Shown: positions 17,620 to 40,225 of the stretch, one piece after another
Numbering within the stretch: the first letter of the stretch is position 1
Layout: every line of letters starts with the position of its first letter
From: Candidatus Bathyarchaeia archaeon
GTDB taxonomy: Archaea; Thermoproteota; Bathyarchaeia; Bathyarchaeales; Bathycorpusculaceae
Reading direction: 5' to 3'
DNA: 64,000 bases
Assembly: GCA_038883855.1 (NCBI GenBank)
Contig: JAVZLH010000004.1
Coordinates: forward strand, 31,150 to 95,149
Program-made: the position numbers and the translations under genes
Notes under the pieces: model-generated
Seen by the model: only the letters and a program-made list of their open reading frames with translations
The model's database searches: none
Told to the model about the DNA's origin: nothing

Positions 17620-18114
17620 TTAAGGAAGAACTTTAAGCAAAGTTTTTACAATTTTTTGTTCTGCCTTCCAAATTTCTAGTGTTAATCCTTCGCCGAAGTC
17701 TGTTTGCTTAGGCTCTATCAACAGCAAAGCAATTTTCGCCTTAACCGTTTGAGCCAAATGCTCACAAAAAACTCTTAAAGGAAGCATGTGAGTTGAAAAC
17801 GCTGGAAAAATTTCTAGATGTTGCGGAAATGTGAGTTTTGATTCGCCCGGTTTTAATCCTAAAATTGCAGCGTCTATGAGGAGGACATGGGTCGGGTTGA
17901 AGTCGATTATTTGTTGGATGAAACCTTCTGGGACGGTTTCACACTCGATTAACTGGACATTACTGGAGACTTTTCCATGCAGGTCTTGAACTATCTTGAC
18001 GCCGATAAAATCGTCCATGCAAATAGGATTTCCAATCCCTGCTACAACAACCCTTTTAGCGTCAACAAGCCATTTTTTTAACTCTTTTTGAAGGTTATAT
18101 TTTCCACTGATCAA
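17620..18114 (-). CDS. Hydrogenase maturation protease (HycI-like)
   Basis: GIGNPICMDDFIG, ETVPE, IDAA and STH motifs; directly downstream of mvhA. Confidence 0.88.
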   Translation of the reverse strand: MISGKYNLQKELKKWLVDAKRVVVAGIGNPICMDDFIGVKIVQDLHGKVSSNVQLIECETVPEGFIQQIIDFNPTHVLLIDAAILGLKPGESKLTFPQHLEIFPAFSTHMLPLRVFCEHLAQTVKAKIALLLIEPKQTDFGEGLTLEIWKAEQKIVKTLLKVLP

Positions 18115-18159
18115 CAGAGTTTCTCCAAAACCTAAAAAGATGGGGAGAAGGGAAAAAGT

Positions 18160-19611
18160 TTACCTTTGAACTTTCCTTAGCAGTTTCCCATCGCGACTGT
18201 AAATTTCCACGGTTAGGGGCATCTGCCCCACGGCAAAATGTGTTGCGCATCCAAAGCATGGGTCATAAGCCCTGAAAGCCATTTCCACCATGTTAAGCAA
18301 GCCTTGGTCAACTTTGCCCCCGTGGATTAAACCTTTAGCAGCATTACGAACTGACATGTTTATCGACGGAGCATTATTAACTGTTGCCACAATCAAGTTT
18401 ACGTCTTTTATTAACGCGTCCTCATCCAAAACATAATGATGAATCAACGTTCCTCTCGCAGCTTCAACCACACCTACACCTTCGCCGGGCCTCCCGGGCT
18501 TGTTGCGAACATCTTTGCTTGTGATCTCCGGGTCTTTAGCCAGTTCCAAAGTTCTTTCAGCAGCGTAAAGCAGTTCGATAAGCCTAGCCCAGTGATAAGC
18601 TAGTGTTGAGTGAACTGGCCGGCCTAAAGTCTTATACATCAACTCATACTCTTCTTGGGCAAGCGGTGTAGCCATACCATCTGAGGCGTTAAGCCTTCCA
18701 AGCGGTCCGACACGGTATGCCCCGCTTTCTGGACCGTCTACAAAGCCTTTCCAGCCGATTTTCTTTAGGTATGGAAGTTTTACGTAGGTCCATTCTTCTA
18801 CATGTTCCGCTATGTGGTCTAGGTAGTTTTTCGCCTCAAACTTTGCGAACTCGTTTCCGTTTGGGTCGACGACCCGTATTTTGCCGTCGTAGAAGTTTAC
18901 TTTGTTTTTCTCGTCAACCAAACCCATATAATAGGTTTTCAGCGTGTAGGCGTCGCTTTTAATTAAGTCAACGTATTTGCTGTTTCCAAGAACAACATCG
19001 TGGAACAGTTTTAACGAGAACTTAGCAAAGTTGACGGCTGAAGCCGCCATCTTCTCAATTTCTTGCCTATTCTCCTCGCTTAATGGCTTAGATATCCCGC
19101 CAGGTATTCCACATACCGGATGCGTTGCTTTTCCGCCGATTATTTCGGTTATTCGTTGTCCATAGGCTCTGTGTTTTATGACTTCTTTGCCTATTTCTAA
19201 TCCAGCCTTTTCAATAACGCCTAGAACGTTGCGTTTTTCCGGCGGTGCGTCTGGACCGACAACAAAGTCTGGTCCACCAAGATAATAAAAGTGCAGTGTA
19301 TGGTCGTAGATGTAGTAGCCACAATACATAAGTTCCCGTAACTTTTTAGCTGCTGAGGGAGGCTCAACATTGAAGGCGGCGTCTAAAGCCTTTGTTCCAG
19401 CCATGTGGTGAGCGACGGGGCAGACTCCGCAGATTCTGCTCGTTAGAAGCGGCATGTCTTCAGCTTTTCTTCCGACGCAGAACCTTTCGAAGCCCCTCAG
19501 TTCTGGAATTTGCAGGTAGGCGTTTTCCACCTCACCGGCGTCGTTTAGGAAAATGGCTATTTTTCCGTGTCCCTCAAGTCTTGTTATTGGGTCTATGATT
19601 ATTTCTTTCAT
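18160..19611 (-). CDS. mvhA: [NiFe]-hydrogenase large subunit, group 3c (copy 1)
   Basis: TRLEGHG, L1 RICGVCPVAH, EAARGTLIHHY and L2 DPCFGCATH with a cleavable C-terminal tail. Confidence 0.94.
   Translation of the reverse strand: MKEIIIDPITRLEGHGKIAIFLNDAGEVENAYLQIPELRGFERFCVGRKAEDMPLLTSRICGVCPVAHHMAGTKALDAAFNVEPPSAAKKLRELMYCGYYIYDHTLHFYYLGGPDFVVGPDAPPEKRNVLGVIEKAGLEIGKEVIKHRAYGQRITEIIGGKATHPVCGIPGGISKPLSEENRQEIEKMAASAVNFAKFSLKLFHDVVLGNSKYVDLIKSDAYTLKTYYMGLVDEKNKVNFYDGKIRVVDPNGNEFAKFEAKNYLDHIAEHVEEWTYVKLPYLKKIGWKGFVDGPESGAYRVGPLGRLNASDGMATPLAQEEYELMYKTLGRPVHSTLAYHWARLIELLYAAERTLELAKDPEITSKDVRNKPGRPGEGVGVVEAARGTLIHHYVLDEDALIKDVNLIVATVNNAPSINMSVRNAAKGLIHGGKVDQGLLNMVEMAFRAYDPCFGCATHFAVGQMPLTVEIYSRDGKLLRKVQR
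19175..19337. repeat. 163-bp tract identical to 35594..35756 (between the two mvhA paralogs)
   Basis: Base-by-base comparison from TTTATGACTTC to AAGTTCCC showed no mismatch. Confidence 0.85.
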
Positions 19612-20588
19612 TTCATAACCCTCCTTCTAAGAATCGAAGCTGGTAAACCATACATGTAAAATGTTCCCACAGGGTCTTTTATCTGCGCTATAAGTTTCTC
19701 AACCTCTTCCTCCGTGTACTTTTCTTTCTCCTCTTCCAAGCCAAGTATCGAAGCCAAAGCACTTATCATCGCTGCACCTTGCTCTGGCGAGTTGGGGCAT
19801 GGTCCACCGCAGCCTGTGCATGGCATGTCAGCTTTTAAGCATCTTGCTCCGCATCCGCCGCGGGTTGCTGGACCCATGCATAGTATTCCCTGCTCAAGTA
19901 GGCAACGTTCCGGCTCCGGAGCCTTCTCGTAAACTCGGTATATTTTTGAGATTTTCTTATTCTCCTTCTTTCTTAGGCATTCGTCGCAAACAGATTTTAG
20001 CGGCGCGAGAACAGAGCCTTTTGGCGGAAGTTCTCCTTTGGCTATGGCTTCTATTGCGTAGAGTGTTCGTTCAACTGCTGGCGGACAGCCCGGTACATAA
20101 TAGTCAACTTCCACTGTTTGGTCTAAGGTTTTGACGGTGTCGTAAAATTCTGGAATTTCCAGTTCTCCCTCTTTAACTTTGACTTTTGGTTTGGGTGTTA
20201 CGCCGTTTGGGTTTACTGTGGAAAAAGTTTGCATGTAAACTTTTTCAAAAATTTCCTTCTTGTTTGTGAGGTTCGCCAGTCCAGGTACGCCTCCTAAATG
20301 AGCACAGGCGCCGTAGGCAACGAGCACTTTTGATTTTTTCCTTAAAAGTTTCGCCATATGCTCTTGTTCTGAGTTGCGTATTCCACCGTTAAAGAAGCAT
20401 ACATCTATGTATTTGTCCGGCATGTTTTCAACATCTTTATATTTTATGTCCATTGCTACCGGCCAGAAAACGACGTCGGCGATTTGCACTACGTCTAGGA
20501 TTTTCTCGTTTATGTCTAAAACGGCGATTTCGCATCCGCCGCAGCTCGCAGCCCAGTAGAAGGCAATCTTTAATTTGTTTTTCTCCAT
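19608..20588 (-). CDS. mvhG: [NiFe]-hydrogenase small subunit (copy 1)
   Basis: ASCGGCE, GACA, PGCPP, VCDEC and CMGPATRGGCGARC..PCTGC motifs. Confidence 0.93.
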   Translation of the reverse strand: MEKNKLKIAFYWAASCGGCEIAVLDINEKILDVVQIADVVFWPVAMDIKYKDVENMPDKYIDVCFFNGGIRNSEQEHMAKLLRKKSKVLVAYGACAHLGGVPGLANLTNKKEIFEKVYMQTFSTVNPNGVTPKPKVKVKEGELEIPEFYDTVKTLDQTVEVDYYVPGCPPAVERTLYAIEAIAKGELPPKGSVLAPLKSVCDECLRKKENKKISKIYRVYEKAPEPERCLLEQGILCMGPATRGGCGARCLKADMPCTGCGGPCPNSPEQGAAMISALASILGLEEEKEKYTEEEVEKLIAQIKDPVGTFYMYGLPASILRRRVMK

Positions 20589-20601
20589 TTTGATTCCTCA
20601 A

Positions 20602-21477
20602 TTAAACGTTACTTAAAACTTCTGTGGGCTTAACTCTAAGCTCGTCGAATCCGAGTTCTTTAGGTTGGAAGCCCATGGCTAAACCCAGCAGCTGCGTGTA
20701 GTGTAGCACTGGGATGCCGAACTTCTCGTTAAAAGTTTTTTCTATTCTGGATTGGTTAAGGTCGAACATTATGTGGCAGAATGGGCATATGGTAATCAGC
20801 GCCTGAGCTTTCACAGCCCTAATATTGCTGAGTTTTTCCTTTGCCATTTGGAATGGCACTTCCTCGTTTACGCCTATTATCGGGTTTCCACAACACTGAG
20901 TCTCATCCATGTAGTCTAGGCATTCAGCCCCGGTCAGCCTAATCAGTTCCTTAAGGGTTGTTGGGTTTTCAGGGTCGTCGCGGCCAACATACTTTGCTGG
21001 GCGGACGACGTGGCATCCGCTGTGTTGGGCAACTTGAAGTTTTGTTAGAGGCTTTTTAACAGCGCTTTTTATTTTCTCGAAGCCAACATCTTCAGCCAAA
21101 ACATAGATTAGATGTTTAACTTCTATTGTCCCTTTGAACTCCATGCCCATTTCCTTTAAGTAACCGTTAATCTTCTCCCTCAACTTTTTGTCTTCTTTAA
21201 GCATCTTGTTTGTTTCGTTTAGGCTGCTGAAGCATCCGTTGCACAAAGTTAAGATGTTGAGGTTTTCTCTTTCAGCCAAGCAGAGGTTTCGCGCCGCCAA
21301 AGTCAACATTAACTCATGGTTTATTGGGTCCATTGGTAGCCCGCAACAGTTGAATTCTGGCATCTCAACAAGTTCAACTCCGAGCTTGCCAAGGACTTTT
21401 CTCGCTGAAACCTCGTAGCTTGAAAGCCTATATGGGACGACGCAGCCTAGGAATATGAGGTATTTTGGATTTGCCAT
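20602..21477 (-). CDS. hdrB: Heterodisulfide reductase subunit B (copy 1)
   Basis: FLGC..CCG..CNGC and GCH..CCG..CPFC double CCG domains. Confidence 0.93.
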   Translation of the reverse strand: MANPKYLIFLGCVVPYRLSSYEVSARKVLGKLGVELVEMPEFNCCGLPMDPINHELMLTLAARNLCLAERENLNILTLCNGCFSSLNETNKMLKEDKKLREKINGYLKEMGMEFKGTIEVKHLIYVLAEDVGFEKIKSAVKKPLTKLQVAQHSGCHVVRPAKYVGRDDPENPTTLKELIRLTGAECLDYMDETQCCGNPIIGVNEEVPFQMAKEKLSNIRAVKAQALITICPFCHIMFDLNQSRIEKTFNEKFGIPVLHYTQLLGLAMGFQPKELGFDELRVKPTEVLSNV

Positions 21478-22031
21478 CAGCTTTTCACCTTCTCAAAAGT
21501 TTTCGCGTTTTCAAGAATCTTCGCCGAACCAGTAAGCTCAAATATTTTTGAAACGTCGGCGAGGTTTGGCTTTGGAAGAGGCGGTAAACCATCCTCCACC
21601 CTCTTTTTATGTCTTGACTCTGGAATGGCGTATACATAACCGCTTTTCAAAAGGTTAGTTGCCAACTCCTTGTAAACTAGAGGCATTATACCCTTATCTT
21701 TCGTAACCATGTTTCGTAAGGCGCGCACTATTCCAGCGATTTCAACACCCTGCGGACAGTGGTCAACACATGTGAAGCACGCTGTGCAAAGCCAAAGGGT
21801 GTCGTTTGACAAAAGCCTATCTTTTAGCCCAAGCTGCACCATTCTTGCTATCTTTCTTGGTCTGTAAAAGTCGCTGAACCTTGAGATTGGGCAGTCGGCT
21901 GTGCATGTTCCACACTGGAAGCAGAGCATTATTTTTTCTGCGCCATGTATCTTACTCATTTCATACTTGAATTTGGGATCTAGTTCCTCAGCCTTTATCA
22001 CGCTTGCAGCTTGCTCTTTAACTTCACTCAT
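21477..22031 (-). CDS. hdrC: Heterodisulfide reductase subunit C (copy 1)
   Basis: [12 protein letters not shown] and [14 protein letters not shown]. Confidence 0.93.
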
Positions 22032-22465
22032 TCGTTTTTCCCTCCACTCTTTAACGGGCTTGGACCAAGCTTTTTAATTTGTTCAACCATGTCCCTCACA
22101 ACAGCGGCAAACTTGTCTCCTTCACTTGCCGAAACCCACTCCAGTCGCACACGCTCCGGTTCTATTCCGAATTCCTGCAGAACCTTCTTTAGGAGCTTTA
22201 CCCTTCTTAAAGCTTTAAAGTTCCCGCTGAGGTAATGGCAGTCTGATGGTAAATGACAGCCGGCGACGAGAACCCCGTCAGCTCCATCCTTGAAGGCTTC
22301 TAAAATGAAGGCTGGATCTACTCTGCCGCTGCACATTACGCGGATAATTCTTATGTGTGGCGGGTATTGGATGCGGCTTACACCAGCCAAGTCTGCTCCA
22401 GCATAGGCGCACCAGTTGCAGAGGAAGCCAACAATTTTTGGTTCGAAATTTTTTTCGCCGCTCAT
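22028..22465 (-). CDS. mvhD: [2Fe-2S] adaptor subunit MvhD
   Basis: [26 protein letters not shown] and WVSASEG. Confidence 0.95.
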
Positions 22466-25400
22466 GCTGTTGCCTCCTCCATTAAGGCTGCTCTAACTTG
22501 AGCCATTATCTCTTCAGTTGTGAAGTGACCTAGGATTATGGCTTTTGTTGGACATGCTGTTCCGCAGACTCCGCATCCCTTGCAGAGGGCTTCAATTACG
22601 TGTGCAACTGGTTTGCCGTCTTTTTCTTTCATTTCTATCGCGCCGTAGGGACATAGATATTCACAGATTCTACAACCACTACATAAATCTTCATCCACGT
22701 TTGCGATGATTCCCTCGGTTTCAAGCGTCTTTTTCGATAATATCGTTGCGGCTCTTGCTGCTGCAGCACACGCTTGAGCGATGCTTTCGTCAATGTATTT
22801 GGGGAGATGCGCCATTCCACATAGGAAGACGCCGTCTGTTTGGAAGTCTACTGGTCTAAGCTTCATGTGGGCTTCTAGGAAGAAACCGTCTTTTGTCAGA
22901 GGCACTTTAAGCATTTCTGCTATGCGCTTATTATCTGGGTTTGGAACTGTGGCGGCGCTTAAAACAACGAGGTCTGGTTGGATTTCAATCTCCTCTTTAA
23001 TCACTGGTTCATAGAATCTTACTTCGAGTTTTCCACCAGTGTTTGTAACTTTTGGCTTTCTTTCATCATCATAGTTTATGAACATGACGCCTTTTTCCGC
23101 TGCCTTGCGATAATAGTCCTCTTTGAAACCATAACTTCTAACATCCTTGTAGAGAACGTAAACATCTGTCTGGGGGCTGGTCTCCTTGATTTTTAACGCG
23201 TTTTTGATGGCCTGCCCGCAGCATATCCTAGCACAGTTAGGTCTTTCTTCCGTTCTTGCGCCGACACATTGTATCATGACAACTGTTTTTGCTTTGAATT
23301 CGCCTTTCGCAATTTTCTCTTCCAACTCGTGTTGCGTCACTACCCTTGGGTCTTTACCATATAAGTATTCGGTTGGCTTGTATTCAACAGCTCCAGTTGC
23401 AACGATAACCACACCATGCTCTATTTCCTTTTCCTCGCCATTTTCCACAATTTTTGATTTAAAGTTGCCAACGAAACCGTTGACTTCAACGACTTCCGCT
23501 CCGAGGTGAACTTGTATCTTCTTGTTTTCCATAACCTCTTTAACTAGCTTGTTCAACTGTTCCTTCGGGTCTTCGCCTTCCAGCAGATAGTAGATTTTGC
23601 GCAGGTGTCCACCCAACTCTTTTTCGCGTTCTACAAGGTGAACTTCAAAGCCTTGCTTGGCAAGTTCTAGAGCTGCAGTCATGCCTGAAACTCCGCCGCC
23701 GATTATTAGGGCTACAGGCGTAACGCCTATCACTGGCTTCTTCAGAGGTTTCAGAAGCCTTGCTTTTGCAACCACTGACCGAACAAGGTCTTTGGCTTTT
23801 TCCGTTGCTTCCTTGGGCTGGTGCATATGCACCCAACTGCACTGGTCTCGGATGTTCGCCATCTCAAAGAGGTAGGGGTTCAAGCCAGCCTCTTGAACGG
23901 TTTCTCTGAAAAGCGGCTCATGTGTCCTAGGAGTGCAGGAGGCGACAACAACACGGTTAAGCTTATACTCTTGTATTTTCTCTTTTATCCTCTTTTGTGT
24001 GTCGTCAGAGCACGTGTAAAGGTTGTCTTCGGCGTAAACCACGTTTGGAAGTTTCCTCGCATATTCTACAACTTCCGGGACCCTTACTATTCCGCCGATG
24101 TTTATTCCACAGTGGCAAATGAAAACTCCTATACGCGGCTCTTCTTGGCTTACGTCCCTTTCAGGCGGATACTCCTTAACCGTTACGAACTTTCCTCTTT
24201 CAGAAGCTATTATGGACATGGCTTTTGAGGCTGCAGCACTCGCCTGCGCAACACTTTCAGGAATATCTTTCGGCGCGCTGAAAGCTCCACAGACAAATAT
24301 GCCTGGCTTTGATGTTTCAAGGGGCGTGAAGGTTTTTGTTTCACAGAAATGATATTTGTTAAGCTTTATCCCGAGGATTTTGGCAAGCTTTTCTATGTCT
24401 TTTGGCGGTTGCATTCCGGTGGAGAGAACAACCGTGTCGAACTCTTCTGTTTTCGGCGTTTCGTCCTCAACATAGTGGACGAAGAGGTTGTTTGTCGCCG
24501 GGTCTTCTGTTACGCTTGCAACCCTTGACCTCACAAACCTTATACCGTACTCCTCTTTTGCACGGTTGTAGTAGGCGTCAAACTCTTTTCCATAAGCGCG
24601 GATATCCATGTAGAAAATTGTGCAGTCAAGCTTTGTCGGCACATGTTCCTTAGCTATTATCGCCTCTTTAATGCCGTACATGCAGCACGCTGCAGAACAA
24701 TAGTTGTTTCCGAGTTGCGCATCTCGTGAGCCAACACATTGAATGAAGGCTATTTTCCGCGGGATTTCGCCGTCTGAAGGTCTTAGGACTATTCCGCCGT
24801 AGGGTCCTGAAGCGCTTAAAATGCGTTCGAACTCTATGCTTGTTACAACGTTTGGGAAGCGTCCATAACCATATTCGCTTTTGAGCCTAGCGTCGAAGGG
24901 TTCGAATCCTGGTGCTAGGATTATTGAGCCTACTTTTAGGGTTACTTCGCTGTCTTGCTGGTCGTATTCAACAGCCTTCGCCTTACATACTTCTTGACAT
25001 GTTCTACAGCCTATGCATTTTTCTCGGTTTATTATGAACCTTAACGGAACTGCTTGTGGATACTCAACGTAGATGGCGCTTTTATCAGTCAAGCCTTTAT
25101 TGTATGTGTCTATGGCTTCAACGGGACATTTTTGTGCGCACAGCCCGCAGCCGTTGCATTTTTCCTCGTTTATGTAACGGCTTCTTTTTCGAATTTTAAC
25201 TTCGAAGTTTCCAGCTTCGCCTTCTAAGCCCACCACTTCGCTGTTCGTAATCAAAGTTATGTTTGGGTGCCTTCCAGTTGTGACAAGCTTTGGTGCAAGA
25301 ATACACATTGAACAGTCGTTTGTTGGGAACGTCTTGTCAAGTTGCGCCATTACGCCGCCTATGCTAGGCGACTGGTCAACAAGGTACACTTTAAAGCCAG

Positions 25401-25482
25401 AGTCAGCCAAGTCTAGGGAAGCTTGTATTCCAGCGACGCCTCCGCCGACCACGAGGACTGAACCTACTTTTTCCTTAGCCAT
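22462..25482 (-). CDS. hdrA: Large (~1006 aa) HdrA with two tandem FAD modules
   Basis: Two GGGxxG FAD motifs, [23 protein letters not shown], an internal CHCGINI/CTPRTHE domain, a second IQCVGAR..CARICC and a C-terminal ferredoxin. Start at ATG 25482 after GGAGGT. Confidence 0.93.
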
Positions 25483-25483
25483 T

Positions 25484-26233
25484 TTACTTAACCTCCAAAG
25501 CTTTGTAAAGTGGAGTTGTTCCTTCAACCCTGTCTAGGGCTATCATCCCCTTTCTACGCATGTTAGTTATGTGTCGAAGAACTGCGGCTGGCTTAATGCC
25601 GAGGTTTTCGGCTAAAGCCTTAACTGAAAGGGGTTTATCCTTTGTGAGAAGGTGAATCTTATGTCGGATAAATTCTGCAGTAACGATTTCGTCTAATAAG
25701 GCGTCAAATTCCTCTTGTGGGATTTTTTCGCCATAGGCGTTTAGGAAGTTTGTCAGTTCTTCCTCCCTTCCCAAAAGAACTCTAAGTCTAAAATCTGATG
25801 CCGCGTTCTTTGCTGCCAGAATATTTTCTGAAATTTTTGATTTCGGCTCTTTCAATGGGGAAGCGCCAAGCTTCCAGATGTCTTCTGAAAACTCTCTTGC
25901 AAGGTAACTGAAACTTATCTCTTCCAATGGTGAAGACCAAAACAGTTTCAAGCGTTCAGGTTCAAGACCAGTTAAAGCCATCAGCTTCTTCAACATTTTG
26001 ACAGCGCGTTCTGCTTGAAGGTTGCCGTCGACAAAGTGGCAGTCTGGCGGTTTGCATCCAACCAGCATTACGCCGTTTGCTCCCTTGGCGAATGTTTCTA
26101 AAACTATAACTGGGTCTATCCTTCCAACACATGCAACGCGGACAACGTTAACGTTTGATGGAACATGTAATTCTTCTTGGCAGTAAGTCCAGTTACACAT
26201 GAAACAAACAATTTTAGGCATGTTACGTTCCAT
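25484..26233 (-). CDS. MvhD-like [2Fe-2S] domain fused to a helical linker and a C-terminal winged helix-turn-helix
   Basis: FMCNW, ACVGRIDP, GCKPPDCHF and LEPERL, then LSVKALAENLGIKPAAVLRHITNMRRKGMI. Start at ATG 26233 after GGGAGGT. Confidence 0.85.
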   Translation of the reverse strand: MERNMPKIVCFMCNWTYCQEELHVPSNVNVVRVACVGRIDPVIVLETFAKGANGVMLVGCKPPDCHFVDGNLQAERAVKMLKKLMALTGLEPERLKLFWSSPLEEISFSYLAREFSEDIWKLGASPLKEPKSKISENILAAKNAASDFRLRVLLGREEELTNFLNAYGEKIPQEEFDALLDEIVTAEFIRHKIHLLTKDKPLSVKALAENLGIKPAAVLRHITNMRRKGMIALDRVEGTTPLYKALEVK

Positions 26234-26238
26234 GCTTT

Positions 26239-27954
26239 TTACCTCCCTAAAGCTGCCGAAACGAGCATTAAAATTTGCTCGTTGGTCAGCTTCTTCATTG
26301 TTATGGCTTGTTCGGGACATCTAGCCGCACATACCCCGCATCCCTTGCATAGGTCTTCGTTTACCTGCGCTATTCCTTTCTCGTTCTTTTTAATTGCCTC
26401 AACGGGGCAGATAACCGCGCACACGTTGCATCCTACACAGCGGTTTTCATCCACAACGGCCTTATCGCCTTCGCATAAGTCCATGCTTGCAAGGCATTCT
26501 GAACATGGTCCACAGCCCAAACAGCGAAACGCTTCAAAACGCGCCTTCTGCTTTATCCTCTCCAAATATTCCACAGCTTCTTCAAAGCTTAAATGAGGCT
26601 TCTCTATGGGCGGTTCATACCTACGCTCTTTCTTCTTTATAGAACCCCAGTTTTTAACCCAGGTTGTCTCTTCAACCTTCTCCTCTCTACCCTTCCGCAA
26701 ATCTTGACCCCTAAGATAAAGATGGATGGAAACAGCCGCCCTTTTTCCAGCGCCCACAGCCTCAATTATGCTTGCGGGCCCAGTGGCTATGTCGCCTCCA
26801 GCGAAAACTCCTGGAACATTTGTTTCCAATGTTAACGGGTCAACTTGTAAGGGTGGACCCTTTTTGTCTTGGCTTAAAACTTCTGCTGGCAGACACTCGG
26901 TTTCAGCCACTTGTCCAAGGGCTGGAATCACCATGTCAACTTCATATTGGTGTTCTGAGAAACTTATTGGAACTGGGCGTCTTCTTCCGCTTTCATCTGG
27001 TTCGCCGAGGCGCATTCTCAGGCATTCAACAGCCTTAACCTTTCCATTTTCGCCTATAATCTGTTTCGGAGCAACCAACAGGTAGATTTTTATTCCGTCT
27101 TTTTCAGCCAGCTCCACCTCGTGCGGCAGCGCCGGCATTTCCTCACGTGAACGCCTATAAAGAATCATGACCTCTTTTGCGCCAAGCTTCTTTGCAGTTC
27201 TAGCTGCGTCGATTGCGGTGTTTCCGCCGCCGATCACAGCAACCCTTTCGCCGACGGTAACATGCTCGCCAAGCGCCACCGCCCTCAGAAAGTCTACAGC
27301 ATTAATAACGCCTTCTAAATCTTCGCCGGGCACATTTAATTTCATGCCTTTCTGTGTTCCGATGGCTATGAAAAACGCTTTGTAACCATCAGCCTTTAAG
27401 CTTTCAAGCGTCACATCTTTTCCAAATTCTACGCCAGTTTTTATTTCAACGCCTAAATCTTGGATGTAGGCTATTTCGTTTGCAACAACAAATTTTTCAA
27501 GACGAAAGTTTGGGAGACAATACCGCATCATGCCGCCTGGCTCGGACATGCGCTCAAAAACGGTTACGGGATAACCGAGCTTTGCAAGTTCGTAGGCTGC
27601 TGTTAACCCTGCGGGTCCAGCCCCTATTACGGCGACTTTTTCGCTGTATTTCTTCGGTATTGGGTCAGGCTTTACCCGTCCTTGTTCGCGTTCTATGTCT
27701 GCAACAAGCCTTTTTAGAGCGCGGATGGCTACGGCTTGGTCAACATTAACTCTTGCGCAAGCGTCTTCGCATGGGCTGAAGCATACTCTTCCACAGATTG
27801 CAGGGAAGGGCATGTCCTTTCTTATAACTTCCACAGCCTCTCTGAATTTACCCCTTTGAATCAGAGAAACATATGCTTGAACGTTTACCCGCGCTGGGCA
27901 CACCGCCCTACACGGGGGCAACAATCTTTTTTCACTTATTGGAATGGCTGTCAT
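26239..27954 (-). CDS. GltD/NfnB/HdrL-like FAD- and NAD(P)H-binding Fe-S oxidoreductase with C-terminal ferredoxin
   Basis: PCRAVCP, CGRVCFSPCEDAC, GAGPAG, GGGNTAID..YRRSREEMPA, FAGGD, RCLGCGPCSEC and two CxxCxxCxxxCP motifs. Confidence 0.9.
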   Translation of the reverse strand: MTAIPISEKRLLPPCRAVCPARVNVQAYVSLIQRGKFREAVEVIRKDMPFPAICGRVCFSPCEDACARVNVDQAVAIRALKRLVADIEREQGRVKPDPIPKKYSEKVAVIGAGPAGLTAAYELAKLGYPVTVFERMSEPGGMMRYCLPNFRLEKFVVANEIAYIQDLGVEIKTGVEFGKDVTLESLKADGYKAFFIAIGTQKGMKLNVPGEDLEGVINAVDFLRAVALGEHVTVGERVAVIGGGNTAIDAARTAKKLGAKEVMILYRRSREEMPALPHEVELAEKDGIKIYLLVAPKQIIGENGKVKAVECLRMRLGEPDESGRRRPVPISFSEHQYEVDMVIPALGQVAETECLPAEVLSQDKKGPPLQVDPLTLETNVPGVFAGGDIATGPASIIEAVGAGKRAAVSIHLYLRGQDLRKGREEKVEETTWVKNWGSIKKKERRYEPPIEKPHLSFEEAVEYLERIKQKARFEAFRCLGCGPCSECLASMDLCEGDKAVVDENRCVGCNVCAVICPVEAIKKNEKGIAQVNEDLCKGCGVCAARCPEQAITMKKLTNEQILMLVSAALGR

Positions 27955-28055
27955 CGGTTAGACCAGCCTCTTAGAAGTATATTCGAATGTTTTGTCCAAT
28001 ATATTAACCCACCTAAACCATGTTTAACATATATGTAACACAAGATTTTTAACAG

Positions 28056-28076
28056 AAAAAGGGGGGAGTTGAGGGT
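28056..28076 (-). terminator. Putative pyrimidine/oligo-T terminator after the RHH-GcvH gene
   Basis: The minus strand reads ACCCTCAACTCCCCCCTTTTT directly after the stop codon. Confidence 0.4.
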
Positions 28077-28667
28077 TTATTCGCGGAGCCTTCCTTCAAG
28101 TTTGCTTACCCACTTATTGTATTCTCTTGGGCCTAACAAGCCTTTTAGTTCCTCTTCCAAAGTCATGGAGTTTTTGGGTTTAATCTCGATTATCCAGCCT
28201 TCGCCATACGGATCCTCATTTATCAGGTGAGGTTTATCCCTCAAATTCTCGTTAACCTTAACGATTTTACCGCTTACAGGTGCGTAAAGGTCAAACATGA
28301 ACATCCATGTTTCAGCCACACCGAAAGGCTCCATTTTGTTAACTTCTTTCCCAACAGGGTCTGTAATAACGTTTGCAATGCCCTTTAAGTGTTTTTGAGC
28401 GTAGTCTGAAACGCCCACGCGTATGTTTCCTTCAGGGGTTATTTGAGCCCAAGTGTGCTTTGGTGTGTATAGCAGTTGTTCAGGTACCGCTAGGAGTTCT
28501 TTGCACTTTTCGGCTGGAATGCCCTCAGCGCGCATAAGTTCTTCTAAGCGCAGTCGGATTGCTTCTGAAACGAACTCCGATATGCTTCGGTAACGGCCCG
28601 TTTTGAGAGCTTTTTCGATTTCTTTTATGAGTTCTTGCCTTATACTTACGGTTTTCCATTCTGACAT
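28077..28667 (-). CDS. Ribbon-helix-helix domain fused to a GcvH-like domain lacking the lipoyl-lysine
   Basis: N-terminal WKTVSIRQELIKEIEKALKTGRYRSISEFVSEAIRLRL (RHH). C-terminal YTPKHTWA, VGVSDYAQ, DLYAPVSGKIVKVN and INEDPYGEGWI (GcvH), with ETWM in place of ESVK. Confidence 0.88.
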   Translation of the reverse strand: MSEWKTVSIRQELIKEIEKALKTGRYRSISEFVSEAIRLRLEELMRAEGIPAEKCKELLAVPEQLLYTPKHTWAQITPEGNIRVGVSDYAQKHLKGIANVITDPVGKEVNKMEPFGVAETWMFMFDLYAPVSGKIVKVNENLRDKPHLINEDPYGEGWIIEIKPKNSMTLEEELKGLLGPREYNKWVSKLEGRLRE

Positions 28668-28802
28668 TTTACATCAACCTCCTTTACATCTACGTGATAT
28701 ATAGAGCAAAGCTAAAGATATATATCTAACGTAAATAAAAAATATAGAATAAATAAATGTGTCAAAGTATATATCGTAAGTATAAGTAAAGAGTTGGTAA
28801 AT

Positions 28803-29876
28803 ATGGAGATTAGAAAAGTACAGAAAGTCGGCCACTCAACAATGACAGTTTCACTTCCAAGCGAGTGGGTGAAACAACACAACCTCAAACCCAGCGACCT
28901 CCTGTTCATTGTTCCAGAAAGAGACGGTTCGCTTAAGTTGATGCCAAGCCAACTAGCCCAAAGAGAGGAAGCAGAAGAATACGTGATAAATGCTGATGCT
29001 TGCGATGAGCCTGGAATGCTTGAAAGGATAATTGTCGGCGGTTATATACTTGGAAGAGACGTAATAAGGGTTATTTCTTCAAGTCGCATAGGGAAAGCCC
29101 ACGTAGACGAAGTGAGAAATATTGTCCAGAAGCTCATAGGTTTGGGTATTCTCGAGGAAACGCCGAAGAGCATCCTTCTCCAATGCTCAATTGACTCGAC
29201 AAAGTTCAAGCTCGACATGTTGATTAGGCGGCTTTCGCTAATCGCCTCCACCATATTGTCGGAGGCAGTTCAAGGTTTTCGAGAGAAAAACTATGATTTA
29301 GTGGAGGAGGCGATCGCCCGCGAAGATGAAGCAGACAAAATCTACTATTTGGCAGTGCGTCTGCTGCTTTCTGCACAGATAAAACCAGACATAGCAGAGG
29401 AAGTCGGTATGGTAGATATACTTTTCATTCCAGCAGCCAGAGTAATACTACAATATTTGGAGTTGGTTGCAGACTACTCGGAATTTTTAGCCAGAGAAGT
29501 TCTTGAAATGGAAGTGTACCGTAACAGGTTGCCGAACGAATTGGTTGATAGAATTTGCCATCTCAGTGAGTTAACCCAAACAATTTTTCAGAAAGCTGTG
29601 GAGTGCGTTTTCACAAGAGACTTAAAAGTTGCAAATCAGCTTTTGGAGATGAAAAACGTACTTGAAATAGACTCAAACAGACTTATGCGAGAGGCGCCAG
29701 AGATTCCCTATGTTAGGGCGATTCTTTCATGTCTAAGCAAGATTGCAGACAAAGGCGCAACCATAGCTGAAATAGCCATAAACAGAGCTTTGGAAGAACC
29801 TAGCAGGTACGCGGGGAACATTGTTCGAGCAGTGAAGCACGTGCGGACTATGCCGTTACCTGCTGGAAAGAGATAA
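28803..29876 (+). CDS. AbrB-domain/PhoU-family transcriptional regulator
   Basis: RKVQKVGHSTMTVSLPSEWVK (AbrB-like), IGLGILEE, EDEADKIY and LELVADY PhoU repeats; divergent from the RHH-GcvH gene. Confidence 0.88.
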   Translation: MEIRKVQKVGHSTMTVSLPSEWVKQHNLKPSDLLFIVPERDGSLKLMPSQLAQREEAEEYVINADACDEPGMLERIIVGGYILGRDVIRVISSSRIGKAHVDEVRNIVQKLIGLGILEETPKSILLQCSIDSTKFKLDMLIRRLSLIASTILSEAVQGFREKNYDLVEEAIAREDEADKIYYLAVRLLLSAQIKPDIAEEVGMVDILFIPAARVILQYLELVADYSEFLAREVLEMEVYRNRLPNELVDRICHLSELTQTIFQKAVECVFTRDLKVANQLLEMKNVLEIDSNRLMREAPEIPYVRAILSCLSKIADKGATIAEIAINRALEEPSRYAGNIVRAVKHVRTMPLPAGKR

Positions 29877-29961: not shown

Positions 29962-30417
29962 ATGGATGATTTTGAGGAAGCATTACAAAACATAGACGTC
30001 TTCTGCAGAGTTCTAGCTAAGAAGATAGCTGAAAGCTTAAATGATGTTGAAAGCAACGTTTCAGTTGAGCCTATTGAGAGGCTCTTGAGAAGAAAATATA
30101 TTATAGAGGAGCAATTTGAACAAAATTCAACGGTTAAACATTTTATTCCGCTTCCACAAGTTGAGGAGCCTCTAATAGACGTTTTTGAAGATGACAACTA
30201 CGTTAAAGTTTTGATGCAATGCCACTGTAAAGGCCAAAAAGTAACAATTCACAGAGATTCGAGTGGCTTAGAAATATGTTTGGAAAACGTGTGTAGAAAA
30301 CTTAACCTGCCGGTTGAACAGTTACAAGTTGAAAACATGGTCATGAAATGCAACAATAACGAAGCTTTAGAAGTTGAAATTCCAAAATTGAAGACAACTG
30401 TAAATTACGACCGCTGA
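29962..30417 (+). CDS. Hypothetical protein with Hsp20/alpha-crystallin-like C-terminal domain
   Basis: EEPLIDVFEDDNYVKVL and NNEALEVEIPK resemble the archaeal Hsp20 core. Confidence 0.6.
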   Translation: MDDFEEALQNIDVFCRVLAKKIAESLNDVESNVSVEPIERLLRRKYIIEEQFEQNSTVKHFIPLPQVEEPLIDVFEDDNYVKVLMQCHCKGQKVTIHRDSSGLEICLENVCRKLNLPVEQLQVENMVMKCNNNEALEVEIPKLKTTVNYDR

Positions 30418-30425
30418 AAGCCCTA

Positions 30426-30629
30426 CTAAATGGGCACGGTTACACCTTTTTGTTTTATTCTTCTTCTGCAAGCTTCCTCTTCGGCGCACTTTACACAAGT
30501 GTAAATGACATCAAACTCGCTTTTCTCAGGGTTTGCAGGATTTACAAGGAAGGCGAGACACTCTTCACCCTTATTTATTGTCCCGCCACAACAATAGCAT
30601 TTATGCTCTTTTAAGGCTCTAACCTTCAT
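30426..30629 (-). CDS. Small Cys-rich putative zinc-finger protein
   Basis: RALKEHKCYCCGGTINKGE...YTCVKC (CxxC pairs), 67 aa. Confidence 0.65.
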   Translation of the reverse strand: MKVRALKEHKCYCCGGTINKGEECLAFLVNPANPEKSEFDVIYTCVKCAEEEACRRRIKQKGVTVPI

Positions 30630-30741: not shown

Positions 30742-31617
30742 CTAGCCTATCTTCTCAAGCACTTTGTCAATTTTCATTTTGTGGAAGTCAAGCGCCAGCT
30801 CCTTGGGTTCCACGCCTAGGCTTAGGCTCAACAGCTCAGCGTAATGGACTATAGGCATATTGTATTCTTCTTTATAAGAGGATTTTATCAGCATCTGCCC
30901 AAGGTCAAGGGTTAGGAAACAGAAGGGACAAAGCGTTGATATGCAGTCGGCGCCAGCTTCTGTTGCGTTTACAATTTTGTCTCTTGCTATTGCCAAAGCA
31001 ACATCGTCCGCGTAACCCCTAAGGAGACCGCCACAACATCTCAGCTTGTTTCTGTACCAGATGCTTTTTGCGCCTAAAGCCTCAATTAACGTGTCAAAGA
31101 TTCTTGGGCGTTCAGGATCGTCGAACCTTAAGAGCGCGCTTGGTCTGAGAAGGTGGCATCCAGAGAAAGAAGCCACTTTCAACTTGCTTAATGGTTTAAC
31201 AACGCTTCTTTTTAGGCGGTCTACACCAATGTCCTTCATTAAAACTTGAAGGAAATGCCTAACTTCCTTGTTGCCCTTAAACTCCTTGCCAACATTCGCT
31301 AGGATTCTGTTCACCCGTTCTCGCAGTTCCTCTTTTTCTTTCAGCAAAGTGTTTGTCATTGCCAGAGACTCGAAACATCCCGTGCAAAGTGTGACTATGT
31401 TTAGGTCGGCTTCTTCGGCTAGGCAAATGTTGTAGGCTGCAATGGCTAGGCTTGTTCCCAAATCTATAGACTGCAGCGGTGGAGGAGCGCAACACGTCAT
31501 ATTCTCTAGGTCAACGAGTTCTATTCCCAGCTTTGTTAGGGCTTTTCTCGCTGAAAGTTCGTAGTGGGGTTGGCGGGCAGGTATTGTGCATCCTAAAAAT
31601 AACGCGTAGGTCGTCAT
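30742..31617 (-). CDS. hdrB: Heterodisulfide reductase subunit B (copy 2)
   Basis: FLGC..CCAP..CTGC and GCH..CCGG..CPFC. Confidence 0.92.
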   Translation of the reverse strand: MTTYALFLGCTIPARQPHYELSARKALTKLGIELVDLENMTCCAPPPLQSIDLGTSLAIAAYNICLAEEADLNIVTLCTGCFESLAMTNTLLKEKEELRERVNRILANVGKEFKGNKEVRHFLQVLMKDIGVDRLKRSVVKPLSKLKVASFSGCHLLRPSALLRFDDPERPRIFDTLIEALGAKSIWYRNKLRCCGGLLRGYADDVALAIARDKIVNATEAGADCISTLCPFCFLTLDLGQMLIKSSYKEEYNMPIVHYAELLSLSLGVEPKELALDFHKMKIDKVLEKIG

Positions 31618-32123
31618 TGGGATTCACCTTTTTTAAACATGATTTTATCAAAGCCTGTTGCTGAAAGAATCTTCTTTACGGCGTCGACACCAGTTGGTTT
31701 CAAGGGCGGCAGCCCATAGTCTCCCCGCTTCTTTTCCAAGAATTTTGATATGGGAACTATGCGTCCTTCATTCATTATCCCAGCTGCGAACTCAGCATAG
31801 ATGTTGGGTATGTTGCCCTCACGTATGGCCATGTTTCTCAAGGCGTAGATGACATCTGCAATTTCAACTTTCTGCGGGCAGCGTTCCTGGCAGTTGTAGC
31901 AGGAGGCGCAGAGCCAAATGGCGTCGCCTGCAATGACGTCTTGTCTAAGCCCTAAAAGTGCGAGGCGAATGATTTGTCTTGGATTGTAGCGGTCTGTGGT
32001 TTTTGCTACTGGACAGCTGCTGGCGCATGTTCCGCATTGATAGCAGTAGGTTATTGTTTCTCCGCCGAGTCTGCTGGTTATCTCTTTTGTAAAGTCTGTG
32101 GTTGAAGTTTTTTCCTGCGCCAT
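31614..32123 (-). CDS. hdrC: Heterodisulfide reductase subunit C (copy 2)
   Basis: CYQCGTCASSCP and WLCASCYNCQERCP. Confidence 0.93.
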   Translation of the reverse strand: MAQEKTSTTDFTKEITSRLGGETITYCYQCGTCASSCPVAKTTDRYNPRQIIRLALLGLRQDVIAGDAIWLCASCYNCQERCPQKVEIADVIYALRNMAIREGNIPNIYAEFAAGIMNEGRIVPISKFLEKKRGDYGLPPLKPTGVDAVKKILSATGFDKIMFKKGESQ

Positions 32124-32138
32124 TATAGTTATCTCCTA

Positions 32139-34613
32139 TTAGGCTAGTTGCAGCAGCCCTAATTTCTCCACTCTTTCAGTCATAGTTCTAGCGGCTTCAG
32201 CGAACTTGTCTCCCTCAATGTAGACGAGGTTAAACATTTCAAGCCTTTCGGGTTCTATGCCGCACTCCTTAAGCAGCTTCTTCGCCAGTTCCACTTTCAC
32301 TTTGGTTTTTTGGCTGCCAACTTCATAGTGGCAACCGTCTGGTTTGCATCCGACAACCATAACTCCTTGGGCGCCAGCCTTGAAGGCTTCGAGTATTTGC
32401 TGAACTTGAACCATGCCCGTGCACGGAACTTTCAGCACTCTTACGTTTGCTGGATACTGCATCATAGCCATGCCTGAAGAGTCCACTGCCGCGTGACCAC
32501 ACTCTGAGCAGCTTATGGCTAGAATCAGCGGTTTAGATGTTCCATTCACTGAAAGCAACGCCTTCATTTGGGCTGATATTTGGGCTGGCTTCAAGTGGCG
32601 GAGTTCAATGGCTCCGACGGGGCATGTTCCTACACATACGCCGCATCCTTCACAGAGAAGGTCGTCTACTTTCGCGACAAAGTGCTCCTTGTCCTTTGGC
32701 ACTAGGCTTATGGCGCCGTATGGGCATGTGACTGGACAGAATTCACAGTCGCCGCAGTAATCCTCATTCACAAAGGCGGTTTTTCGGTCTTTGATTATTT
32801 TGCCATTTGTGAGGAATTTGGCTGCTTTCACCGCCGCCGAGTGGGCATGTAAGGATGTTGTCGGCGCGTCTTTTGGGAAGGTTGCACCTCCGCAGAGGAA
32901 TATTCCCCTACACTTTGTTTCCGTAGGTCTGAGTTTCGCATTGTATTCTTTGAAGAAGCCGTCTTGGTCGAGTTCTAAGCCGAGGATTTCGGCAAGTTCC
33001 TTTGTGCCTTCGGCTGGAACCATGGCTGCCGCGAGAACCACAAGGTCAGCTTCTAACTCCAAGAATTTCCTCAAAAGTTCGTCTTCAACATCCACCACAA
33101 GCGTGTTTGTTGCTGGGTCATGCAGAATTTCTGTCGGTCTGCCTTTAACAAATTTTATTCCCATTTCTCTGGCTTTTTCATAATAGTATTCATGTTCTCT
33201 TCCAGTTGTCCTAATGTCAATGTAGCATATTGTGACATCAGCGTCTGGATAAGCTTCCTTGATTAGGGTTGCGTGCTTCAGCGATATCATGCAGCATATG
33301 CTTGAGCAGTAGGGGTTCCAGCGCCTATCCCTAGAGCCGACACATTGCACGAAAACTATTCGTTTTGCTGGTTTCTTGTCTGAGGGTCTTATTAACGCGC
33401 CGTTTGTAGGTCCAAAAGCGTCCAGCATCCGTGCAAGTTCCAAGTGAGTTATGACGTCTGGATACTCGCCATAATGGTATTCTTTGATTACGCTCGGGTC
33501 GTATTCCTTGAATCCCGTGGCAACTATTAGGCCTCCAACGTTGAGAGTTAGGTTTTCAGTCTTCTGGTTCAGTTCAATAGCCTTTGTTGGGCAGACCTCA
33601 ACGCACTTTGCACATTCAGCAAACTTGCAGGCTTTCTCGTCTATGACATAAACTGGCGGATAAATGAGAGGCTTGTTTATGTAGATTGCCTTGCGCGTTT
33701 TGAGCTTCGCGTTATACTCGTCTGGCACCTCAACGGGGCAAACAGTCGTGCATAAATCGCAGCCTACGCATTTCTTTTCATTAACATATCTCGGCTTTTT
33801 CTCTATCGTCACCTTATAGTTTCCAGGAACACCCTCAACTTTTACAACTTTAGAGTTTGTAAGCACGTTTAGGTTTGGAATTTCAGAAAATCCCGAACGG
33901 TAAACGCATTTTCGCGATGTGTGAGTTACTGTTTTCAGGTCTGAGGCTGGAGATTGTATGCATATGGCACAGTCGTCTGTTGGGAAGAAACGCACAGCCC
34001 TAGCAGCCAATCCGCCCAAGAAAGGTTCTTTTTCAACTAAGTAAACCTCGAAGCCCATGTCTGCCAAATCTTCAGCAGCTTGCATTCCACCTATTCCACC
34101 GCCAATCACAAGAACGGATTTGACGACTGGAAACTCGAGTTTCTCTATTGGTTCGGAAAGTTTAACGCATTCTATGGCGGCTAAAAGCATCGCTTTAGCT
34201 TTTTCAGTTGCTTCTTTCGGCGCATCTCGATGAGGCCATGCACAATGGTCTTTTATGTCTAGAACTTCCATAAGGTTTGGATTTAGCCCAGCTTCTTCAA
34301 CGGCTGTGGCTATGGCGATTTCGCTTATTTTTGGAATACTTTCGGCGACGACAACTCTATTCACTTTCTTGTCTTTAACGGCGTCAACTATGGTTTTTAG
34401 TCCTTGACCACGCCAGAACTCGCTTCCTCTCGCAACAAAAGTCACTCCTTGAACGTTTTTCACGAAGTTTTCTAAGGCTTCAAAGTCGAGGATTTTTGCG
34501 ATTTGCCCTCCACAATTTGATAGGAATACTCCAATTTTTACTTCTTCCAAGGCTTTCACCTTACCTTTTACTTTATCTTTTGAGCGTTTTGACGAGCCTC
34601 TTTTGGCTGTCAT
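32139..34613 (-). CDS. hdrA: HdrA-MvhD fusion with degenerate N-terminal Fe-S domain
   Basis: GGGIGG, FPTDDC, an inserted ferredoxin, VQCVGSR..YCSSICC, a C-terminal ferredoxin and an MvhD domain (CSECG, PCTG, GCKPDGCHY). Start at ATG 34613 after GGAGGTG. Confidence 0.9.
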   Translation of the reverse strand: MTAKRGSSKRSKDKVKGKVKALEEVKIGVFLSNCGGQIAKILDFEALENFVKNVQGVTFVARGSEFWRGQGLKTIVDAVKDKKVNRVVVAESIPKISEIAIATAVEEAGLNPNLMEVLDIKDHCAWPHRDAPKEATEKAKAMLLAAIECVKLSEPIEKLEFPVVKSVLVIGGGIGGMQAAEDLADMGFEVYLVEKEPFLGGLAARAVRFFPTDDCAICIQSPASDLKTVTHTSRKCVYRSGFSEIPNLNVLTNSKVVKVEGVPGNYKVTIEKKPRYVNEKKCVGCDLCTTVCPVEVPDEYNAKLKTRKAIYINKPLIYPPVYVIDEKACKFAECAKCVEVCPTKAIELNQKTENLTLNVGGLIVATGFKEYDPSVIKEYHYGEYPDVITHLELARMLDAFGPTNGALIRPSDKKPAKRIVFVQCVGSRDRRWNPYCSSICCMISLKHATLIKEAYPDADVTICYIDIRTTGREHEYYYEKAREMGIKFVKGRPTEILHDPATNTLVVDVEDELLRKFLELEADLVVLAAAMVPAEGTKELAEILGLELDQDGFFKEYNAKLRPTETKCRGIFLCGGATFPKDAPTTSLHAHSAAVKAAKFLTNGKIIKDRKTAFVNEDYCGDCEFCPVTCPYGAISLVPKDKEHFVAKVDDLLCEGCGVCVGTCPVGAIELRHLKPAQISAQMKALLSVNGTSKPLILAISCSECGHAAVDSSGMAMMQYPANVRVLKVPCTGMVQVQQILEAFKAGAQGVMVVGCKPDGCHYEVGSQKTKVKVELAKKLLKECGIEPERLEMFNLVYIEGDKFAEAARTMTERVEKLGLLQLA

Positions 34614-40047: not shown

Positions 40048-40225
40048 GAAAGTCAACCGCCACACGTGAATGCTACGTTTGGCACAAGTTAAACTTTACG
40101 AACCAAAACTACACTTTCTAGTAATGTAGAAAATGAGCATAGTTAGGGGTGAAAATCTAGAGGGGGTCTATCGGTATTGGTTTGTTTTTAACTCAAAAAA
40201 TGTAGAGAAACTACGCCCCGGTCGA

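Follow-up and report, generated by a model that had tools for sequence, protein, structure and literature searches.

Which role is left for a protein with the fold of the glycine cleavage system H-protein (GcvH) that lacks the lipoyl-bearing lysine, carries a putative DNA-binding N-terminus and is encoded beside hydrogenase genes? This question is raised by a gene at 28077..28667 on the minus strand of a stretch of 64,000 nucleotides (the window) from contig JAVZLH010000004.1 of assembly GCA_038883855.1, which belongs to a Candidatus Bathyarchaeia archaeon from a hot spring. The gene appears in the list of open reading frames (ORFs) as an intact frame of 196 amino acids (aa) starting with ATG. 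Homologues agree with this frame, which combines an N-terminal ribbon-helix-helix (RHH)-like domain with a C-terminal H-protein fold and is here called RHH::GcvH. On balance, it is probably a local transcription regulator, in which a repurposed, de-acidified H-protein fold serves as input or oligomerisation domain.

The C-terminal domain is readily recognized as an H-protein fold. Pfam GCV_H (PF01597) matches residues 65-188 (28104..28475, minus strand) with an E-value of 1.1e-30 and 106.4 bits, the motifs HTWA, GVSDYAQ, DLYAPVSG, and INEDPYGEGWI are all found, and a phmmer search against PDB sequences returned 13 H-proteins, with T. thermophilus 1ONL as the best (E 3e-24). In an AlphaFold2 (AF2) model of the whole protein, which was built from a 13-row alignment and has a predicted local distance difference test (pLDDT) value of 83, the C-terminal domain is placed by Foldseek on the solved H-proteins 3AB9, 3KLR, and 1ONL with template modelling (TM) scores of 0.90-0.93, normalised to the target. 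In the phmmer alignment, the hairpin ETWMFMFDLY (E119 to Y128; 28284..28313, minus strand) lies on ESVKTASDIY of 1ONL. Therefore, the position of the lipoyl-lysine is occupied by Met122, whose codon is at 28302..28304. A conserved H-protein domain with methionine at this site had been proposed in a first-pass annotation of the DNA, and this proposal is borne out by the motifs, the Pfam match and the alignment.

The exchange of the lysine is part of a broader remodelling. Compared to 110 lysine-bearing representatives, the RHH::GcvH family has kept the fold core, namely H71, W73, G85, G106, E119, D126-L-Y, P130, G133, N139, P146, N150, and W158. The hairpin has been changed by the substitutions S120T, V121W, K122M/W, A123F, V124M, and S125F, and the adjacent LGD and VELP segments (the LGD/VELP strand) are altered as well as several acidic positions. 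In the family, the domain has a median net charge of -4.5 with a pI of 5.3 (n=12), versus -14 with a pI of 4.3 in the lysine-bearing proteins (n=110); in the window protein, the net charge is -2. The carrier fold has been remodelled around the former cofactor site, and its acidic surface is largely gone. Judged from the sequence, lipoylation at the canonical site should be impossible in the fusion.

The absence of the lysine is a family trait. An exhaustive phmmer search over 1.84 billion representatives gave 7799 matches at E <= 0.001. When the query and the best 150 of these were aligned, the lysine column contained K in 110 sequences, M in 11, A in 6, W, N, and G in 4 each, L, E, and T in 2 each, F, I, and Q in 1 each, and a gap in 3. 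Lysine is absent from all 13 representatives with a true RHH N-terminus; some of the RHH-bearing representatives have an insert of 3-5 residues such as RWPL. In a FastTree phylogeny of the GcvH domain (145 rows, midpoint root, 6 rows with <95 aligned residues dropped), these 13 fusions all fall within one clade of 24 members, which has a local support of 0.73 and no lysine-bearing member. Those clade members that lack an RHH are for the most part shorter, and several are evidently truncated. The lysine-free RHH::GcvH forms have a single origin and constitute one clade inside GcvH. Across 118 distinct RHH::GcvH sequences from all loci, the site is occupied by M in 68, W in 36, L in 7, and F in 2, with A, R, K, P, and S once each; lysine is thus missing in 117/118.

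Several candidates for the fusion were rejected during this survey. L017, L034, L075, and L051 are ordinary lysine-bearing GcvH genes, L036 consists of a lysine-bearing gene followed by a second GcvH-like ORF without the hairpin lysine, and L044 contains two lysine-free GcvH-like genes without RHH. The tandem genes of L044 (7282-8243) have an insert of about 10 residues in the hairpin (..YGRSYANLNLMRWEC..) and are located beside a divergent AbrB-PhoU gene. Another protein, P0132 (1391 aa), has three GcvH-like domains, which by eye lack lysine at the aligned hairpin position. C-terminal to these domains, an apparent FAD-linked oxidase, Fe-S motifs, and CCG (HdrD/GlpC-like) domains were recognized, also by eye.

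A missing cofactor residue might also indicate a decaying or chance ORF, and the first-pass annotation had linked decay to orthologs that keep the lysine or do not conserve the site. Neither was found. A word-index search gave 1187 homologues at E <= 0.001. Among them, the 120 best are 84-100 % identical and 196-202 aa long, and the tip ETWMF, whose conservation had been left to an alignment, is present in 119 of these 120; in the remaining sequence, the search pattern matched elsewhere. The ratio of nonsynonymous to synonymous substitution rates (dN/dS) is 0.031-0.065 in pairwise comparisons with seven of eight orthologues, while the synonymous rate is saturated in the eighth pair. RHH::GcvH is under strong purifying selection, and decay is excluded. 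Since hundreds of homologues are intact and equally long, the promoter and the ribosome-binding site are conserved, and nothing except the missing lysine speaks in its favor, decay or chance has a negligible probability.

The family appears to be almost restricted to one order of Bathyarchaeia. The organism labels among the best 120 homologues are nearly all Bathyarchaeia or Bathyarchaeota, with one Thermoproteota; one cluster member is labelled Baldrarchaeota, and its nearest relative is labelled Bathyarchaeota. An ESM Atlas search with the RHH::GcvH protein returned only its own Bathyarchaeota clusters. When 301 sampled Bathyarchaeia genomes were searched with a profile, 281 had GCV_H-type matches. 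Among the best 150 of about 550 matches, full-length fusions (model positions 1 to >=164, E <= 1e-60) were found in at least 23 genomes, all from the order of the window and distributed over four families with 11, 8, 2, and 2 genomes (f1, f2, f4, and f5, respectively).

Within the family, two paralogue types can be distinguished. Type M, to which the window gene belongs, has the tip ETWMFMF and the motif EDPYGEGW. In type W, the tip is ETWWF or ET..RWPL.., the linker is longer, and DPxQW is found as motif. In 53/58 metagenome loci, both types are encoded in tandem with W first, and a 417-aa single-chain W+M fusion (P0121, P0271) occurs on three contigs. The tandem order and this natural fusion suggest that the W and M paralogues act together.

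The names given to these proteins imply a different role. Most organism-labelled homologues among the best 120 are called 'glycine cleavage system protein GcvH' and one is called 'ribbon-helix-helix protein, CopG family'. According to the names used by NCBI and JGI, the fusion would be a working glycine cleavage H-protein, and the looser NCBIfam subfamily model NF002270 is indeed exceeded with 124.1 bits at a cut-off of 117. The equivalog model TIGR00527, however, is missed with 103.8 bits at a cut-off of 115.85, the acidic surface is lost and the lysine is absent as described above. Furthermore, neither gcvT nor gcvP adjoins the RHH::GcvH gene in the loci examined, and at least two of the 23 fusion genomes (G163 and G145) have a second GCV_H-type match. 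A function in glycine cleavage is therefore very improbable. The GcvH-like families TIGR03077 (not_gcvH) and NF045810 (GcvH_rel_desulf) do not accommodate the protein either, with 47.8 bits at a cut-off of 144 and 43.5 bits at a cut-off of 150.

The first-pass annotation had stated that the window is without gcvP, gcvT, and lipoate ligase genes; none was found among the 23 ORFs scanned between 13.5 and 43 kb of the window. Family searches of the 1.11-Mb assembly, which is 85 % complete, did not find GCV_T, GDC-P, BPL_LplA_LipB, or lipA either, and the RHH::GcvH gene is its sole GCV_H match. The missing gcvT and ligase genes probably reflect an assembly gap because GCV_T is present in 4/5 close fusion-bearing relatives and a BPL/LplA-family gene in 4/5, and because the genome itself (L171, contig 21, 179-2604) encodes E1-beta and a 370-aa E2 acyltransferase with a canonical lipoyl-lysine (..ISEKATYDLEAP..). 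On the same grounds, a lack of lipoate metabolism was rejected as explanation for the absent lysine. Thus, the fusion appears to be a specialised paralogue beside ordinary lipoate metabolism.

The N-terminus, comprising residues 4-45 (28533..28658, minus strand; WKTVSIRQELIKEIEKALKTGRYRSISEFVSEAIRLRLEEL), had been taken for a CopG/MetJ/Arc-like RHH. Its sequence WKTVSIRQELIKEIEKALKTGRYRSISEFVSEAIRLRL shows what we take to be the strand, helix, G-x-x-S-x-S-E, helix pattern of RHH proteins. With the whole protein as query, residues 6-43 match RHH_1 with 17.5 bits, which is below the gathering score of 20.5; with residues 1-52 alone, 20.4 bits are reached. In an alignment of residues 1-52 from 40 sequences of both paralogue types, 5 of the 52 positions are invariant and 11 more are conserved at >=90 %. 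When scanned singly, 17/40 members match RHH_1 at E <= 0.01 (best 8.5e-6), which makes it the top Pfam family there, and 5/40 match ParD_antitoxin. The family profile aligns in register with H. pylori NikR in the PDB (E 0.032), followed by a ParD-type antidote (0.063) and a CopG protein (0.1); chance matches of similar strength, including eL39, appear beside them.

RHH_1 domains are few in this genome. A six-frame scan of its 1.1 Mb gave five matches at E <= 0.01, with RHH::GcvH as the fourth, and hhalign against two RHH_1 proteins encoded there gave one match in register (E 0.0025) and one weak match (0.12). A 51-aa RHH_1 protein of the same survey (L174, contig 20, 1492-2755) is encoded directly 5' of a gene that by eye appears to be ftsZ, an order that recalls the CdrS-ftsZ2 arrangement of haloarchaea.

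Structure prediction did not reproduce a ribbon. In the AF2 monomer, residues 2-22 and 29-47 form helices with pLDDT 58-76, and there is no strand in residues 2-22. The model of the 417-aa fusion P0121 (pLDDT 62.6) has no ribbon as well, and its RHH parts range from below 50 to 67; in its alignment, MAFFT had put all single-unit rows on the first half, leaving the second half nearly without alignment. A homodimer prediction with two copies and a 29-row alignment reached a score of 0.19 at a mark of 0.42, which weighs neither way on dimerisation. Taken together, the N-terminus is likely an RHH: the sequence profiles support this part of the first-pass annotation, while two low-confidence models give helices without a ribbon.

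Upstream of the gene, a putative control region is conserved. Twenty-seven distinct orthologous upstream regions were aligned, with second-copy upstreams, four shifted-start regions and duplicates left out. The alignment contains AT-rich conserved blocks, the clearest of which is TATATAT-N14-TATATAT(CA), a candidate TATA box plus operator at 28697..28724 (minus strand). The repeat is exact in 21/27 regions and ends 29-34 nt 5' of the start codon; it has a single match in the window, where 0.01 would be expected, and a single match in the whole assembly. The distal copy, around which the palindrome AGATATATATCT is found (28716-28727, minus strand), would suit as a TATA box with a leader of about 30 nt. 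This leader would hold the ribosome-binding site GGAGG (28678..28682, minus strand), which is 11 nt 5' of the ATG and belongs to a conserved block, AAAGGAGG, of the orthologous upstream regions. By its position, the proximal copy would be near the transcription start, and archaeal repressors often bind near the transcription start.

Downstream of the stop codon, a C-rich stretch with a T5 run (28051..28066, minus strand) resembles an archaeal terminator, and a C-run followed by T5-T7 recurs after the stop in most orthologous intergenic regions. The gap of 122 nt between RHH::GcvH and the following operon has its own TATA-like box, TTAATATAT (27999..28007, minus strand), which is located about 45 nt 5' of the first gene of the operon, is conserved in orthologous loci and is likely the operon promoter. 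The T-run and this box suggest that RHH::GcvH may be a transcription unit separate from the operon. Two runs labelled metatranscriptomic yielded contigs of relatives, mostly at 90-95 % likeness, and no information on transcripts. The box was also considered as a shared operator; this was rejected, as it has only 2 matches in the window, the other one preceding an AFOR gene, and it is probably a strong TATA box.

The operon extends over 17620..27954 on the minus strand. According to Pfam, NCBIfam, and synteny, it encodes a GltD-like FAD/FeS flavoprotein (26239-27954), MvhD-wHTH (25484-26320), a double HdrA of 1021 aa (22462-25527) and subsequently MvhD, HdrC, HdrB, MvhG, MvhA, and HycI. MvhD-wHTH has 278 aa and consists of an MvhD (FlpD) Fe-S domain with a C-terminal winged helix-turn-helix (wHTH); it may regulate in response to the redox state or be no more than a structural oddity. 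Full-length homologs of it were found in 70/301 Bathyarchaeia genomes and in 17/23 fusion genomes. On the opposite side of RHH::GcvH, a divergent AbrB/MazE-PhoU gene (28794..29876, plus strand) encodes a protein of 360 aa.

This arrangement is widely conserved. The GltD-like gene is next downstream in 9/11 full-length loci of GTDB species representatives, the other two having another gene (L006) or a contig edge (L049) there, and AbrB-PhoU is upstream in 10/11. Among 58 metagenome loci, the GltD-like gene follows in 40/40 with >=500 bp downstream, and AbrB-PhoU is divergent upstream in 37/42 with >=500 bp upstream. The association is not universal, however. In nine loci, seven of them from one genus (g23), the next gene encodes a TauE/SafE permease; L006 and L094 are the same stretch. 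In L006 (989-7359), the only long locus of this type, TauE is followed by NuoE-, NuoF-, and NuoG-like genes and by the small and large subunits of a Hox-like NiFe hydrogenase, and Hdr genes were not seen within about 8 kb downstream. The six fusion genomes without MvhD-wHTH belong to this TauE-type genus. Because of this genus with TauE and a Hox-like hydrogenase downstream, the link to Hdr genes drawn initially does not extend to all loci, and the constant partners are AbrB-PhoU and a soluble redox operon linked to hydrogenase rather than Hdr itself.

The gene order bears on two further explanations. In the first, RHH::GcvH belongs to the GltD-like/Hdr/Mvh enzyme as a structural or adaptor subunit and does not bind DNA; its lysine-free fold would dock at the site of the lipoyl carrier, and the N-terminal helices would serve only to dimerise the protein. 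Lipoyl-type folds without lysine occur as structural modules. The strict adjacency to the operon and the three lysine-free GcvH-like domains fused to FAD-oxidase and CCG domains in the 1391-aa protein mentioned above are in line with such a function, as is the GcvH encoded beside Hdr genes in Culexarchaeia, for which an interaction with HdrB has been proposed (PMC9723716). The promoter repeat of the gene, the T-run and the gap with a separate TATA-like box speak against it, as do the loci in which TauE follows and the Hox-like hydrogenase of L006. In addition, nucleic-acid binding would suit a protein whose acidic surface has been lost and whose RHH-type N-terminus is basic (pI 8.1). A regulator is more fitting than a fixed Hdr subunit because the same gene precedes a different hydrogenase cluster (TauE, NuoEFG-like, NiFe), and we regard the adaptor as rather unlikely.

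In the second explanation, RHH::GcvH would act as co-regulator through AbrB-PhoU, with the GcvH-like domain binding PhoU or AbrB and the pair forming the DNA-binding unit. AbrB-PhoU is the most constant neighbor, and the lysine-free pair of L044, which has no RHH, is likewise beside a divergent AbrB-PhoU gene. This support is confined to gene order, however, and the strong conservation of the RHH motif in 40 sequences would not be expected for a mere tether, so that this possibility is considered doubtful.

For RHH::GcvH as a local regulator, the following mode of action is the most likely. The N-terminal RHH would dimerise and bind the AT-rich repeat in the promoter of its gene; the promoter of the neighboring hydrogenase-linked operon (GltD-like, MvhD-wHTH, HdrABC, MvhADG) would probably be a second target. 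The lysine-free H-protein domain would serve as input or oligomerisation module, in which the hydrophobic tip E-T-W-M/W-F would no longer bear a swinging arm and would meet a partner, either protein or small ligand. The tandem paralogues with the tips ETWW and ETWM would probably function jointly, and the divergent AbrB-PhoU gene probably belongs to this unit of control. This regulator fits the fixed place before a redox operon, the promoter repeat of the gene and the T-run after its stop codon. Of the initial proposal that a non-lipoylated H-protein had been recruited into a transcription factor, the loss of canonical lipoylation thus stands, and the regulatory role is a deduction that fits the context of the locus.

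Several points weigh against a regulator. DNA binding by RHH::GcvH is a prediction, and the partner or ligand of the tip is hypothetical, as are the sensing of oxidation by the W-M-F-M tip, put forward in the first-pass annotation, and a contact with Hdr subunits. The RHH_1 score of the window protein is just below the Pfam gathering score, and the helices without a ribbon in both AF2 models described above belong here as well. The AT-rich repeats could simply be the TATA boxes of two divergent promoters, and the T-run and the separate promoter are readings of patterns.

In a more specific version, the protein would mimic an H-protein and, by a partner switch of the trigger-enzyme type, tie transcription to the state of the enzyme under its control. 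The Trp-Met tip would dock in the site of the GltD-like/Hdr proteins (or of AbrB-PhoU) for the lipoyl arm or disulfide carrier, and the substrate load would decide whether the regulator stays on the enzyme or moves to the operator. We regard this version as speculative and improbable. If true, it would suggest that in archaea without CoM and CoB, Hdr acts on a lipoyl disulfide bound to a protein.

For the HdrABC/Mvh-type complexes in non-methanogenic archaea such as Bathyarchaeia, a strictly linked dedicated regulator would be an experimental handle on the control of the operon, namely on when it is switched on, and could hint at the substrate acted on. If the regulatory role is true, RHH::GcvH would clearly exemplify the takeover of a cofactor-carrier fold by a transcription factor, for input or assembly, with the lipoyl hairpin rebuilt as an aromatic tip in two paralogue types. 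For metabolic reconstructions, the label 'GcvH' can wrongly credit genomes with an H-protein, and in this assembly the fusion provides the only match.

Further genes of the window were noted beside this locus. Next to AbrB-PhoU, ORFs of 151 aa (29962-30417, plus strand) and 67 aa (30426-30629, minus strand) are without Pfam or NCBIfam match and are conserved beside AbrB-PhoU in relatives with 48-69 % and 72-83 % identity, respectively; the 67-aa ORF contains CxxC pairs. A second Mvh/Hdr cluster (30742-36968, minus strand) encodes HdrB, HdrC, an HdrA-MvhD fusion of 842 aa, MvhA, and MvhG and is syntenic in relatives. A protein of 917 aa (37312-40065, minus strand) combines an ADP-forming acyl-CoA synthetase-like part (CoA-binding, ATP-grasp) with a C-terminal GNAT domain in a Pat-like layout.

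A literature search returned no paper pairing 'ribbon-helix-helix' with 'glycine cleavage system H', and the fusion was also undescribed in further searches. Its parts can be compared with known systems. With the GcvH proteins of T. thermophilus (1ONL) and E. coli (3AB9), RHH::GcvH shares the fold at 37-38 % identity and the retained HxW, G85, E119, DLYxPxxG, N139, and DPY..GW. In contrast to these proteins, it has methionine for the lipoyl-lysine, an aromatic hairpin, altered LGD/VELP segments, and a charge of -2 versus a median of -14. Moreover, an RHH-like domain is added at its N-terminus, and its gene is beside hydrogenase/Hdr genes, not gcvPT.

NikR, the best RHH match of the family profile, likewise begins with an RHH and continues with a beta-rich domain at its C-terminus. 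In NikR, this is a sensor and tetramerisation domain; the C-terminal domain of RHH::GcvH is unrelated (GCV_H) and has no evident metal site, and the NCBIfam NikR models are far from reached by the 196-aa protein (15.7 and 12 bits at cut-offs of 119 and 83). In trigger regulators of the PutA type, an RHH is fused to metabolic enzyme domains, and PutA keeps catalytic activity. RHH::GcvH resembles PutA in joining an RHH DNA-binding domain to a module from metabolism, but this module is a carrier fold without cofactor site.

LbpA is the lipoate-binding protein of sHdr sulfur oxidation (PMC6067878; 10.64898/2026.10.01.755906). Both are GcvH-like proteins encoded with heterodisulfide reductase-type genes. 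LbpA is lipoylated by dedicated ligases on a conserved lysine, which RHH::GcvH lacks, and has no DNA-binding domain. The analogy to sHdr and LbpA suggested initially is a loose one, since the operon here belongs to the Mvh/HdrABC type with a NiFe hydrogenase, comprising GltD-like, MvhD, HdrABC, and MvhAG; the pairing of a GcvH-like protein with Hdr-type genes is common to both. A dedicated lipoate ligase of the sHdr type was likewise sought without a BPL_LplA_LipB match in the incomplete assembly. GcvH-L of Streptococcus and Staphylococcus (5A35; Foldseek E 1e-5) is also a divergent H-protein paralogue with a role other than in glycine cleavage; unlike RHH::GcvH, it is without RHH, and it has been described as a lipoic acid carrier (PMC12440151). 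The published idea that comes closest concerns Culexarchaeia, where the GcvH encoded next to Hdr genes might offer a disulfide to HdrB (PMC9723716). It cannot apply in the same form because RHH::GcvH has neither the lysine nor a conserved cysteine. Compared with all of these systems, RHH::GcvH is most likely a regulator of the RHH type whose C-terminal domain is novel and repurposed.

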